Of a DNA stretch of 64,000 bases, positions 25,182 to 51,662 are shown piece by piece. The number at the start of each line of letters is the position of its first letter. Position 1 is the stretch's first letter. The translations under genes were made by a program, and so were the position numbers. The notes under the pieces are model-generated. The model worked only from the letters and a program-made list of their open reading frames with translations. It had not been told where the DNA came from and made no database searches. This DNA is from Escherichia coli (GTDB taxonomy: Bacteria > Pseudomonadota > Gammaproteobacteria > Enterobacterales > Enterobacteriaceae), in the NCBI RefSeq assembly GCF_003334405.1, contig NZ_QOWM01000003.1, one strand, 5' to 3'.

Positions 25182-25252
25182 AGTGTAAAAGGGGTGCCAT
25201 GAGAAAATGAATCTGCTAGTCAAATGCGCGGGGAAAATCCCCGCGCTTGCCC

Positions 25253-25439
<187 letters not shown>

Positions 25440-30186: not shown

Positions 30187-31842
30187 ATGGATCGTAGACG
30201 ATTTATTAAAGGTTCAATGGCTATGGCCGCCGTGTGCGGTACCAGCGGCATTGCTTCTCTTTTTTCTCAGGCGGCATTCGCGGCAGATTCTGATATTGCC
30301 GACGGGCAAACCCAGCGTTTTGACTTCTCCATTCTACAGTCAATGGCGCACGACTTAGCGCAAACAGCGTGGCGTGGTGCGCCTCGTCCGTTACCTGACA
30401 CGCTGGCGACAATGACGCCGCAGGCTTATAACAGTATTCAATACGACGCCGAAAAATCGCTCTGGCATAACGTTGAGAACCGTCAACTGGACGCTCAGTT
30501 CTTCCATATGGGAATGGGATTCCGTCGCCGCGTTCGTATGTTTTCTGTAGATCCAGCAACACATCTGGCGCGTGAAATTCACTTTCGCCCGGAGTTGTTC
30601 AAATACAACGATGCAGGTGTTGATACAAAACAATTAGAAGGGCAAAGCGATCTCGGCTTTGCCGGTTTTCGCGTGTTTAAAGCCCCCGAACTGGCGCGCC
30701 GTGATGTAGTATCATTTCTCGGCGCGAGTTATTTCCGCGCCGTTGATGATACATATCAATACGGTTTGTCGGCCCGCGGCCTGGCGATCGACACTTACAC
30801 CGACAGTAAAGAAGAGTTCCCCGACTTTACCGCCTTCTGGTTTGATACGGTAAAACCGGGGGCAACTACCTTTACCGTTTATGCGTTGCTCGATAGCGCC
30901 AGCATTACTGGTGCCTATAAGTTCACTATCCATTGTGAGAAAAGTCAGGTGATTATGGATGTGGAAAATCACCTGTATGCGCGCAAAGACATTAAACAGC
31001 TGGGCATTGCGCCGATGACCAGTATGTTCAGCTGCGGTACTAATGAACGTCGGATGTGCGATACAATTCATCCGCAAATTCATGACTCTGATCGTCTGTC
31101 CATGTGGCGGGGCAACGGCGAGTGGATTTGCCGTCCGCTGAATAATCCGCAAAAATTGCAGTTCAATGCTTACACCGACAACAACCCGAAAGGGTTTGGT
31201 TTATTGCAACTGGATCGTGACTTCTCCCATTATCAGGACATTATGGGCTGGTATAACAAACGCCCAAGTCTGTGGGTGGAACCGCGTAACAAGTGGGGTA
31301 AGGGCACCATCGGCCTGATGGAAATCCCAACAACGGGCGAAACGCTGGATAACATTGTCTGCTTCTGGCAGCCAGAAAAAGCTGTAAAAGCAGGTGATGA
31401 GTTTGCATTCCAGTATCGTCTGTACTGGAGTGCGCAACCGCCTGTTCATTGCCCATTAGCGCGCGTTATGGCGACGCGTACCGGCATGGGCGGTTTCTCG
31501 GAAGGTTGGGCGCCAGGTGAACACTATCCCGAAAAATGGGCGCGTCGTTTTGCCGTCGATTTCGTTGGTGGTGATCTGAAAGCTGCCGCGCCAAAAGGCA
31601 TTGAGCCGGTGATTACGCTTTCCAGTGGGGAAGCGAAGCAAATCGAAATTCTCTATATTGAACCCATCGATGGTTATCGTATTCAGTTTGACTGGTATCC
31701 GACTTCGGACTCCACTGATCCGGTCGATATGCGGATGTATCTACGTTGTCAGGGGGACGCTATCAGTGAAACATGGCTGTATCAGTATTTCCCGCCAGCG
31801 CCGGATAAACGTCAGTATGTTGACGACCGCGTGATGAGTTAA
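30187..31842 (+). CDS. opgD: Periplasmic glucan biosynthesis protein OpgD (MdoD), Tat-secreted
   Basis: 551 aa; twin-arginine signal MDRRRFIKG...AFA. Confidence 0.9.
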
Positions 31843-31981
31843 TCGTTTTTTCTTCGGCACCTTCTTCGGGAGGTGCCGTCTGGTTAAACACGATCCCGCT
31901 CGCATTTTTCCCTAAGTTAAATGAGTAATCTGATGGTGTGTATTTCAGATACACCTTGTCAGCCACTAACAGGGAGTGCGT

Positions 31982-32206
31982 ATGTTTCCAGAATACCGAG
32001 ATTTAATATCCCGTCTGAAAAACGAAAATCCTCGCTTTATGTCCTTGTTCGATAAACACAATAAACTTGATCATGAAATTGCCAGAAAGGAAGGTTCCGA
32101 CGGTCGAGGGTACAATGCGGAAGTGGTCCGCATGAAAAAACAAAAGCTACAGTTAAAAGATGAGATGCTCAAAATCCTGCAGCAGGAGAGCGTCAAAGAG
32201 GTGTAA
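31982..32206 (+). CDS. ydcH: DUF465 small protein
   Basis: ATG at 31982 with agggag RBS; 74 aa. Confidence 0.75.
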   Translation: MFPEYRDLISRLKNENPRFMSLFDKHNKLDHEIARKEGSDGRGYNAEVVRMKKQKLQLKDEMLKILQQESVKEV

Positions 32207-32216
32207 ACTTTCCTAA

Positions 32217-32239
32217 GCCGCCAGCCAGGCGGCTTTTTT
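32217..32239 (+). terminator. Rho-independent terminator of ydcH
   Basis: gccgcc-agcca-ggcggc followed by T6. Confidence 0.7.
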
Positions 32240-32268
32240 AACAACTGCATGGATTGACTGGAGATAAG

Positions 32269-32808
32269 ATGACTGAAACGATAAAAGTAAGCGAATCACT
32301 TGAATTACATGCTGTTGCAGAAAATCACGTCAAACCTCTTTATCAGTTAATCTGTAAAAATAAAACCTGGTTACAGCAGTCGCTAAACTGGCCGCAGTTT
32401 GTTCAAAGTGAAGAGGACACGCGAAAAACGGTGCAGGGTAATGTGATGTTGCATCAACGCGGCTATGCCAAAATGTTCATGATTTTCAAAGAAGATGAAC
32501 TTATCGGCGTTATCTCGTTTAATCGTATTGAACCACTGAATAAAACCGCTGAAATAGGCTACTGGCTGGACGAATCTCATCAGGGGCAGGGGATCATTTC
32601 TCAGGCGCTGCAGGCATTGATTCATCATTACGCCCAGTCTGGTGAACTTAGACGCTTCGTGATCAAATGTCGGGTGGACAATCCGCAAAGCAACCAGGTC
32701 GCTTTGCGCAATGGTTTTATCCTTGAAGGTTGCCTGAAACAGGCTGAGTTCCTGAATGATGCCTATGATGATGTGAACTTATACGCGCGTATTATCGATT
32801 CACAATAA
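32269..32808 (+). CDS. rimL: Ribosomal protein L7/L12 serine N-acetyltransferase
   Basis: GNAT-fold protein starting [16 protein letters not shown]. Confidence 0.85.
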
Positions 32809-33780
32809 CCCTGCCAGCGGCGTTCGCGTAATGCGCTCCTCGCCGTTAATGACTTTTGGACCACGGACATGAACCGTGTCGCCATCAAAGGCTTCAACGA
32901 CGGCGTGGTCGGTTAACTCCACATGGTTTTCAATTATCACCGCACCTGTAATACGGCTCTCACCTTGTATGACAACGTGCTCGTCGAGCAGAATCGGTCC
33001 GCCACGTACCACGGCATTTCCGCCAACCAAGACATGATGTTTTAACACACAATTACCTTCCACAATGGCATATTCCGCCACCTGCGAACTGTAATGAATC
33101 GTCGGAATGGCATCTTCTTCTATGCCAGCTTTCACCTGCGCGTGACCGTAGACTTTAGCGCAATCGCATAGCCAGACATTGTTCTCTTCATTACCTTCAA
33201 TACTGGCAAAATCAAAAACTTCGGCGCGATGTTCAATAAAAGCATACCGGACGACGGCATCGCCATAAATTTGTGCCTGGTGGACAATACGCGAGGCGCT
33301 AACCCTTGCGCGATCATAAATTTGGAGCAGGAGTTGATGGTCGGGCGTTAAGCCTTGTGCGGCGACGATCATAGAATGTTGATCAATTAAGGCGTGACCA
33401 AATATTCTACATTGCCCGTAAACTAATGAGTCATGAATGGTGACGCTGTCACTTATATATGCACCCAAGCTGATTTCACTATTATCGATCCAGACGTTAT
33501 CCGTTGCGTAAACCTCTCCCCACAGCACGCTGGTGCCGGTGATACGCGTATTACCGGAAATCACCGCTCCGCCGAACGCAATAGCATTCTGGTCGTAAAT
33601 CCAGCAATTTCCTTCTTGTGCTAACACCGTTTCGCGATCGATCCAGCCGCCAGCGGTTCCTGCTATCACATCGTTAAAATCGCTAATGGCGATAATCTGC
33701 CGTAATAACACATTTTTTTTAGTGCCATCTTCCTGATAACTAAAGGCTCGCTGTTCTTCACTTAGACGATATTTGCGCAT
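32800..33780 (-). CDS. ydcK: Hexapeptide-repeat (LpxD/LpxA-like left-handed beta-helix) protein
   Basis: 326 aa ORF; 3' end overlaps the rimL 3' end by 9 bp. Confidence 0.8.
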
Positions 33781-33903
33781 AGCGTTTTCCCACAGGTGAC
33801 TTACTATAACCGTAGCAAATTCTGCGGCTCTGGCTATGCTCGAGAAAATTCCATAAAATGCATTTCAAATATACTTTATAAATTAAACAAAATGAGTAAG
33901 AAG

Positions 33904-34896
33904 ATGCAGAGCGATAAAGTGCTCAATTTGCCGGCAGGCTACTTTGGTATTGTGTTGGGGACGATAGGGATGGGATTTGCCTGGCGCTATGCCAGCCAGG
34001 TTTGGCAGGTCAGCCACTGGTTAGGGGATGGGCTGGTGATTCTGGCGATGATCATCTGGGGATTATTGACTAGCGCATTTATTGCCCGACTCATACGCTT
34101 TCCGCATAGCGTGCTGGCGGAAGTTCGCCATCCAGTGCTGAGCAGTTTTGTGAGTTTGTTTCCGGCAACGACGATGCTGGTGGCGATTGGTTTTGTTCCG
34201 TGGTTTCGCCCACTGGCGGTGTGCCTGTTCAGTTTTGGTGTCGTGGTTCAGTTGGCTTATGCCGCCTGGCAAACTGCGGGATTATGGCGCGGATCTCACC
34301 CTGAAGAAGCTACCACGCCTGGACTGTATCTGCCGACAGTTGCCAACAACTTTATCAGCGCAATGGCCTGTGGTGCGTTGGGCTACACCGACGCCGGTCT
34401 GGTGTTTTTAGGCGCAGGCGTTTTCTCATGGCTAAGCCTTGAACCGGTGATCTTGCAGCGTCTGCGCAGTTCGGGAGAATTACCCACGGCACTGCGGACA
34501 TCACTCGGCATTCAGCTCGCTCCTGCGCTGGTGGCTTGTAGTGCCTGGCTGAGCGTCAACGGCGGCGAGGGTGACACGCTGGCGAAAATGCTTTTCGGTT
34601 ATGGACTGCTGCAACTGCTGTTTATGCTACGTCTGATGCCATGGTATCTCTCCCAGCCATTTAATGCTTCATTCTGGAGTTTCTCGTTCGGCGTATCTGC
34701 ACTGGCAACCACCGGTTTGCATCTGGGGAGTGGCAGCGATAATGGATTTTTCCATACGCTGGCGGTGCCGCTGTTTATCTTTACCAATTTTATTATTGCA
34801 ATACTGCTCATCCGTACTTTTGCGCTTCTGATGCAGGGAAAATTGTTAGTCAGAACCGAGCGCGCCGTTTTAATGAAAGCAGAGGACAAAGAATGA
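33904..34896 (+). CDS. tehA: Tellurite-resistance / C4-dicarboxylate transporter family membrane protein
   Basis: 330 aa from ATG 33904 ([19 protein letters not shown]...); multi-TM. Confidence 0.9.
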
Positions 34897-50978: not shown

Positions 50979-51212
50979 ATGTCGCATCTGGATGAAGTCA
51001 TCGCGCGCGTGGATGCCGCGATTGAAGAGAGCGTCATTGCCCATATGAACGAATTATTAATCGCCCTGAGCGATGACGCGGAGTTAAGTCGGGAAGATCG
51101 CTACACCCAGCAGCAACGTCTGCGCACAGCGATCGCCCATCACGGTCGCAAGCATAAAGAAGATATGGAAGCGCGCCACGAACAGTTAACCAAAGGCGGC
51201 ACCATCCTCTGA
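50979..51212 (+). CDS. ydcY: Small DUF2526-like protein
   Basis: 77 aa ORF with RBS aaggag. Confidence 0.7.
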   Translation: MSHLDEVIARVDAAIEESVIAHMNELLIALSDDAELSREDRYTQQQRLRTAIAHHGRKHKEDMEARHEQLTKGGTIL

Positions 51213-51662
51213 TTAAAATGAGCGTCTGGCTACCAACCAGGCGCCAACCACAAGTAAAATTGCGCCACAAATTGGGCCGAACAACGCCCGTAGTGGTACG
51301 CCATGACTGCGGAAGATATCCAGCATCAGACCGCCAATCAGCTGACTGGCGACCAGTACAGCAATAGTTGTCGCCGCTCCCACATTCTGATATCCGCTGA
51401 TACTGGCGAAGACAAAAAACGATCCCAGCAAGCCAGGTATAAGTGTCCACCAGCGCACGCTGGACACCAGTTCGCCAAACCCCGCCATGCCTTGTTTAAA
51501 CCATAAAATAGAAACAAAGAGCACAATCCCCACCAGTGAGTTCAGCAACATGGCGATGAGAATGGTAGAGGAGGTCTGGGTGATGCGCACCATCAGCGTG
51601 TTCTGGACAACCAGACCAATTCCGGCGGCAATCAAAAAAGCAAGGGTGAGCGACTGATTCAT
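51213..51662 (-). CDS. ydcZ: DMT-superfamily inner-membrane protein
   Basis: 149 aa, four predicted TM segments; start overlaps mnaT stop (ATGA). Confidence 0.8.
   Translation of the reverse strand: MNQSLTLAFLIAAGIGLVVQNTLMVRITQTSSTILIAMLLNSLVGIVLFVSILWFKQGMAGFGELVSSVRWWTLIPGLLGSFFVFASISGYQNVGAATTIAVLVASQLIGGLMLDIFRSHGVPLRALFGPICGAILLVVGAWLVARRSF

Follow-up and report, generated by a model that had tools for sequence, protein, structure and literature searches.

Convergent gene pairs whose coding sequences share their 3' ends are well described in Escherichia coli. Lillo and Krakauer (2007, PMC2174442) counted 58 convergent CDS overlaps, predicted a rho-independent terminator in 23 of the 116 genes taking part in them (about 20%), and found the in-register phase (123:321) in 33% of the convergent overlaps of at least 5 nt. 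Huvet and Stumpf (2014, PMC4161906) counted 75 convergent overlapping pairs. At the level of transcripts, Sanmartin et al. (NAR 2025, PMC12288877) listed 165 convergent excludons of MG1655 in their Table 1, rimL-ydcK being one of them, using ExcludonFinder and requiring that the boundaries of the two transcripts overlap in 50% or more of the 58 transcriptomes. Synteny was higher for excludon pairs taken as a class, and the authors could not validate the convergent ones with p19 data (PMC12288877). Here we describe how the rimL-ydcK junction compares with these systems.

The window, that is, the whole 64,000-nt stretch of E. coli DNA analyzed here, was collinear with MG1655 over positions 3847-61222 with 99.95% identity and an offset of 1466669, as determined by blastn. 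The gene order around position 32800 was opgD-ydcH-rimL><ydcK-tehA-tehB. The gene rimL (32269-32808, plus strand, annotated start ATG at 32269) codes for the ribosomal protein L7/L12-serine N-acetyltransferase of 179 aa, and ydcK (32800-33780, minus strand) codes for a left-handed beta-helix putative acyltransferase of 326 aa. The sequence and the ORF list placed the end of the rimL ORF at the TAA at 32806-32808 and the end of the ydcK ORF at the TGA on the complement of 32800-32802. The two genes consequently share a tail-to-tail overlap of 9 bp in codon register (32800-32808, TCACAATAA), read directly from the sequence. Within this stretch, TCA-CAA-TAA of rimL (Ser178-Gln179-stop) lies opposite TTA-TTG-TGA of ydcK (Leu325-Leu326-stop) on the other strand, such that the rimL stop TAA complements the penultimate ydcK codon TTA (Leu325) and the ydcK stop TGA complements the penultimate rimL codon TCA (Ser178). 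The same 9-bp overlap is present in the MG1655 annotation (rimL, 1498938-1499477, plus strand; ydcK, 1499469-1500449, minus strand). The sequence-only reading, which had reported the two gene names, their coordinates and the 9-bp 3' overlap, was correct to the base, with the sequence, the ORF list and the MG1655 annotation in agreement.

RimL matched the NCBIfam equivalog model NF007539 over residues 1-179 of 179 with 369.6 bits (cut-off 184), and YdcK matched NF040481 over residues 1-326 of 326 with 557 bits (cut-off 350). The Salmonella structures 1z9u/1s7k matched RimL (E about 1e-80) and 2f9c/2pig matched YdcK (E = 2.7e-141), in both cases with equal length. rimL and ydcK are thus both true protein-coding genes, encoded on opposite strands, and each stop lies inside the partner's frame with no earlier stop. 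Alternative stop usage, named beforehand as the observation that would undo the overlap, was not seen, as neither frame stops earlier and the family profiles end at these very residues; both stops are those typical of the families. The locus was found in 5404 of 5426 complete E. coli genomes, and a 51-nt query spanning the junction matched 3368 of the 5426, a figure that is no measure of invariance as short megablast queries miss polymorphic copies. In E. coli TUM12357 (NZ_CP134370.1), ydcK was interrupted by IS1A, so that the gene is dispensable in that strain.

In the MG1655 annotation of the same 64 kb, 3 of about 13 convergent pairs overlap. Apart from rimL-ydcK, tail-to-tail contacts were annotated for yncP-hokB (overlap of 23 bp, window 25207-25402), for ydcY-ydcZ (abutting without spacer, window 51212-51213) and for ydcD-yncO (overlap of 86 bp, window 63253-63835), the last of which lies past the collinear part and may not apply to this strain. 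The pair trg-ydcI of the same window, with a 37-bp gap, is also among the published convergent excludons (PMC12288877). The blastn blocks revealed several differences from MG1655 far from the junction. In MG1655 the autotransporter gene ydbA is split by IS2D and IS30C; the segment 1-3850 contained neither insertion, so that this strain probably has an intact ydbA. Collinearity ended at 61222, the start of the rhsE pseudogene, and the last 2.8 kb (61222-64000) was unlike K-12. A 13-nt indel relative to MG1655 was located at about 53496 in the curA-mcbR intergenic spacer.

The junction was then compared across species by a YdcK scan with one genome per species, which gave 39 loci, and rimL and both stops were located in each. 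rimL faced ydcK in 36 of the 37 species loci with enough flanking sequence, which was every locus holding a rimL match. Among the 35 species loci keeping rimL, a sample of phylogenetically non-independent species from roughly 8-10 genera, 31 had an in-register overlap of exactly 9 bp. The 9-bp group included Escherichia, Citrobacter, Enterobacter, Pluralibacter, Yokenella, Trabulsiella and Superficieibacter electus, with YdcK identity down to 54%. The stops abutted (0 bp) in Cedecea and Dryocola and overlapped by 4 bp in Enterobacteriaceae RIT693, and gaps of 3 bp and 22 bp separated them in one Superficieibacter and in Buttiauxella, respectively. As the junctions ranged from the 9-bp overlap to the 22-bp gap, none of the relatives offers the space that a hairpin terminator between the genes would need. 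The Salmonella locus, fetched with the exact sequence of the crystallized YdcK, had a 4-bp TTAA overlap (positions 2978-2981 of locus L044), and its RimL ended with ...IIDAD*. An M42 peptidase gene was located beyond rimL in Salmonella in place of ydcH/opgD. Since the junction is kept there while the gene beyond rimL is a different one, the rimL-ydcK junction is older than the surrounding synteny. The tight tail-to-tail arrangement is old, and its conservation over many enterobacterial genera is what is new here. Two records looked like contamination or mislabelling in public assemblies: a 237-bp contig with coverage of 1.4 in the Bacillota assembly of Alkalicoccobacillus porphyridii (L041), carrying a ydcK fragment 100% identical to that of E. 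coli, and a record titled Chryseobacterium sp. 18061 (L024), containing an enterobacterial rimL-ydcK locus.

Among the loci with the 9-bp overlap, a rimL stop of TAA, TAG or TGA was mirrored by TTA, CTA or TCA, respectively, at codon 325 of ydcK. This codon was always one of the three stop complements wherever rimL stops at that position, whereas TTA, CTA and TCA together accounted for only 14.7% of the codons for Leu and Ser at the other positions of the ydcK orthologues. The rimL residues directly upstream of the overlap, outside ydcK, were variable in both sequence and number (D, DGS, DNA, DSV and others). In Salmonella, where the rimL stop is one frame off, codon 325 was TCC, and it was TCG in a Pluralibacter MAG in which ydcK faces hrpA without rimL. 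The gap between ydcK and hrpA in this MAG was 9 bp (positions 3979-3993 of locus L040), and the arrangement stems either from a genomic rearrangement or from misassembly of the MAG. These natural controls (n = 2, one of them a MAG) fit a codon constraint that would vanish where rimL stops elsewhere or is missing.

Without its stop, rimL of E. coli would be 36 codons longer up to the next in-frame stop, and ydcK would be 7 codons longer. Among 37-38 orthologues, the final 40 codons of the two genes showed no additional synonymous constraint: conservation at synonymous sites was 0.42-0.55 in this part of ydcK against 0.43-0.57 in the rest, and 0.50-0.52 in that of rimL against 0.46-0.55 in the rest. 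From these comparisons we infer that the junction pattern reflects purifying selection on the lengths of both proteins together with phylogenetic inertia, with no need for selection on the overlap itself.

The ends of the transcripts were examined with published data. Adams et al. (2021, PMC7815308, supplementary file 2) reported a Rho termination region on the plus strand with a peak at MG1655 1499587, designated 'antisense ydcK', with a Rho score of 4.31 and p = 1.5e-8 by DirectRNA-seq with and without bicyclomycin (BCM). This peak corresponds to window position 32918, inside ydcK and 110 nt past the rimL stop. In 800-nt windows, 82 reads upstream and 20 downstream were reported without BCM; in its presence the counts were 137 and 144, respectively (PMC7815308). 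Read-through thus increased under bicyclomycin in these published data, and the rimL side behaves as a typical Rho-dependent 3' end. The resulting 3' untranslated extension of rimL (32809-32918, plus strand), placed by a method of coarse resolution, covers the final ~37 codons of ydcK in antisense orientation. Past the rimL stop, the C/G ratio was 1.0-1.35 over the first 120 nt (1.35 for the first 80 nt) and rose to 1.5-2.45 between 100 and 280 nt; this C>G bias is a modest, supportive feature for Rho loading. Linking the published region to the 3' end of rimL is a small addition made here.

For the opposite transcript, the supplements of Adams et al. (2021, PMC7815308) contained no rimL or opgD entry for a ydcK 3' end or a minus-strand Rho region, maybe because of low coverage. 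Term-seq across the junction had been proposed as a check of the sequence-only reading, and the published data gave the plus-strand Rho region but no discrete 3' end there. The claim that both transcripts end inside the partner gene thus held in part: each stop lies within the other CDS, and a Rho region is published for the rimL side, whereas for ydcK we infer such an end. The sole Term-seq 3' end nearby was at MG1655 1498877 on the plus strand, designated 'primary ydcH' (PMC7815308). It corresponds to window position 32208, just 2 nt past the end of ydcH and 61 nt short of the rimL start codon; no hairpin is obvious there, and the site bears on possible ydcH-rimL co-transcription.

Antisense RNA exists over both rimL and ydcK. 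In the wild type, sense and antisense reads were 35.9 and 9.2 RPM for rimL and 66.1 and 5.0 RPM for ydcK (Huang et al. 2020, PMC7373196, Table S1b and S1c), the antisense reads over rimL being relatively high for the neighborhood. The p19-captured dsRNA in four data sets amounted to 133-221 RPM for ydcK versus 17-39 RPM for rimL, and the two gene names were absent among the dsRNA cluster entries listed (PMC7373196). In two rnc mutants, antisense reads over rimL and ydcK were not above those of the wild type (PMC7373196). The listing in PMC12288877, the Rho region and these antisense reads, all published data, agree that the two transcripts overlap in vivo.

The reading that best accounts for these results, to which we assign a probability of roughly 0.85, is that rimL and ydcK, both real genes, overlap at their tails in an ancient and ordinary way, a by-product of the stop positions kept by purifying selection. 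Selection on both C-termini would keep the arrangement, and loss of either stop would bring the extensions given above. There has never been room at the junction for an intergenic hairpin terminator, so that each transcript would enter the partner gene as untranslated antisense RNA and be ended by factor-dependent termination. For the rimL transcript this is Rho termination about 110 nt past the stop, according to the published data, and for the ydcK transcript it may be Rho or diffuse termination in or beyond rimL. The resulting antisense overlap of the two 3' ends, some 120 nt at the least, is real, but its regulatory effect is most likely small since both genes are weakly transcribed. At such weak expression, RNA polymerases should seldom meet within a zone of a few hundred bases, and mutual interference, raised as a possibility by the sequence-only reading, is probably weak. 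Three points weigh against a purely passive overlap: the place of the pair in the published 'excludome', which makes a regulatory role possible; the antisense reads over rimL relative to its sense reads together with the dsRNA in ydcK; and the near-universal lack of a spacer across genera, which could mean selection for overlap instead of inertia.

These same points are the ground for regarding the pair as a functional convergent excludon, in which the 3' overlap is selected and polymerase collision and/or RNase III cleavage renders RimL and YdcK mutually exclusive. The presence of the pair among the 165 convergent excludons (PMC12288877) speaks for it, but any pair with overlapping CDSs enters such a list by default as soon as its two genes are transcribed. 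The dsRNA reads in ydcK and the antisense reads over rimL (PMC7373196) also agree with it, although the p19 data could not validate convergent excludons as such (PMC12288877) and the rnc mutants showed no antisense rise over either gene. The zero-spacer architecture conserved across Enterobacteriaceae and the higher synteny of excludon pairs as a class are compatible with a selected overlap; the overlapped 3' regions carry no extra synonymous constraint, and the antisense extension of rimL is curtailed by Rho. Reciprocal expression of rimL and ydcK is unreported, and polymerase encounters should be rare with sense reads as low as 36 and 66 RPM in the wild type. We therefore regard this explanation as unlikely. 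A narrower form of it, that the spacer-free junction itself, from Cedecea to Escherichia and mostly of 9 bp, was selected as an excludon for mutual exclusion of RimL and YdcK, appears less probable still. If true, it would hint at a link of L12 acetylation or microcin C detoxification with the unknown activity of YdcK.

A bidirectional intrinsic terminator within the coding sequence near the junction, ending both transcripts, would take the form of a G+C-rich hairpin between an A-tract and a U-tract at the point of convergence. About 20% of the genes in E. coli convergent overlaps are predicted to have a rho-independent terminator inside the partner (PMC2174442), and for the excludons taken as a class, TransTermHP predicts terminators that overlap in 146 of 165 (PMC12288877). 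A perfect hairpin with an 11-bp stem was indeed present on both strands inside rimL at 32688-32712, about 100 nt upstream of the stop (CGCAAAGCAAC-CAG-GTCGCTTTGCG), but it had no U-tract on the strand of the ydcK transcript and was not conserved outside E. coli. A role of this hairpin as a 3'-end stabilizer of ydcK read-through was also considered and dropped, as it was absent in Citrobacter and other genera. A consensus scan of 31800-34200 for intrinsic terminators detected none near the junction, with no hairpin followed by a T-run on the relevant strands. The sole terminator-like site in this region was inside ydcK on the sense strand, against 2.7 sites expected by chance from shuffles. The folding energies of the two junction strands (32780-32940, plus strand, z = -0.59; 32660-32830, minus strand, z = -0.56) were indistinguishable from those of shuffles. 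Neither the absence of a Term-seq 3' end at the junction nor the bicyclomycin-sensitive drop of plus-strand reads (Adams et al. 2021) is consistent with such an element, and this alternative is largely refuted, leaving it a very small probability. A promoter scan of 31800-34200 gave nothing relevant and an Rfam search of 31500-34500 with E up to 1 gave no match. As the terminator scan, Rfam, folding and synonymous sites were all negative, no conserved RNA element seems to be embedded at the junction. An annotation artefact, in which one gene ends earlier or is not real and the overlap is untrue, found no supporting point and was ruled out by the end-to-end matches to curated equivalog models up to the last residue and the crystal structures of equal-length orthologues, along with the lack of an earlier in-frame stop in either sequence and C-terminal tails conserved in more than 35 species.

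The passive overlap of two genuine genes is already known from the reference annotation and from the published list of overlapping transcripts; it is of an ordinary kind and represents no new regulatory device. The small additions made here are the conservation of the 9 bp, the mirroring of stops and codons, the constraint lost without the rimL stop, and the Rho region tied to rimL. The pair is a tidy textbook example of mutual constraint between overlapping frames that opens no new question.

Compared with the known systems, the rimL-side Rho region is one of the many 'antisense' regions of Adams et al. (2021, PMC7815308), abundant in E. coli, where an entry exists for the rimL side and none for the ydcK side. 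The pair itself is listed among the convergent excludons of ExcludonFinder (PMC12288877) as neighbors with overlapping transcripts. Classical excludons combine overlap through long UTRs with reciprocal expression, whereas the transcript overlap of rimL-ydcK arises from CDS geometry, with a short, Rho-limited antisense RNA. The closest likeness is to the convergent overlapping gene pairs (PMC2174442, PMC4161906), a well-described class to which rimL-ydcK belongs and in which its overlap is statistically ordinary. These pairs are likewise two real CDSs on opposite strands with short common 3' ends, each stop complements a sense codon of the partner, and an intergenic terminator is impossible; their known origin is stop-codon displacement (PMC2174442, PMC4161906), and rimL-ydcK shows no essential difference from them. 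What this pair has beyond the class is an overlap that stays at the same 9 bp in many genera, with the more common 4-bp TTAA type in Salmonella.
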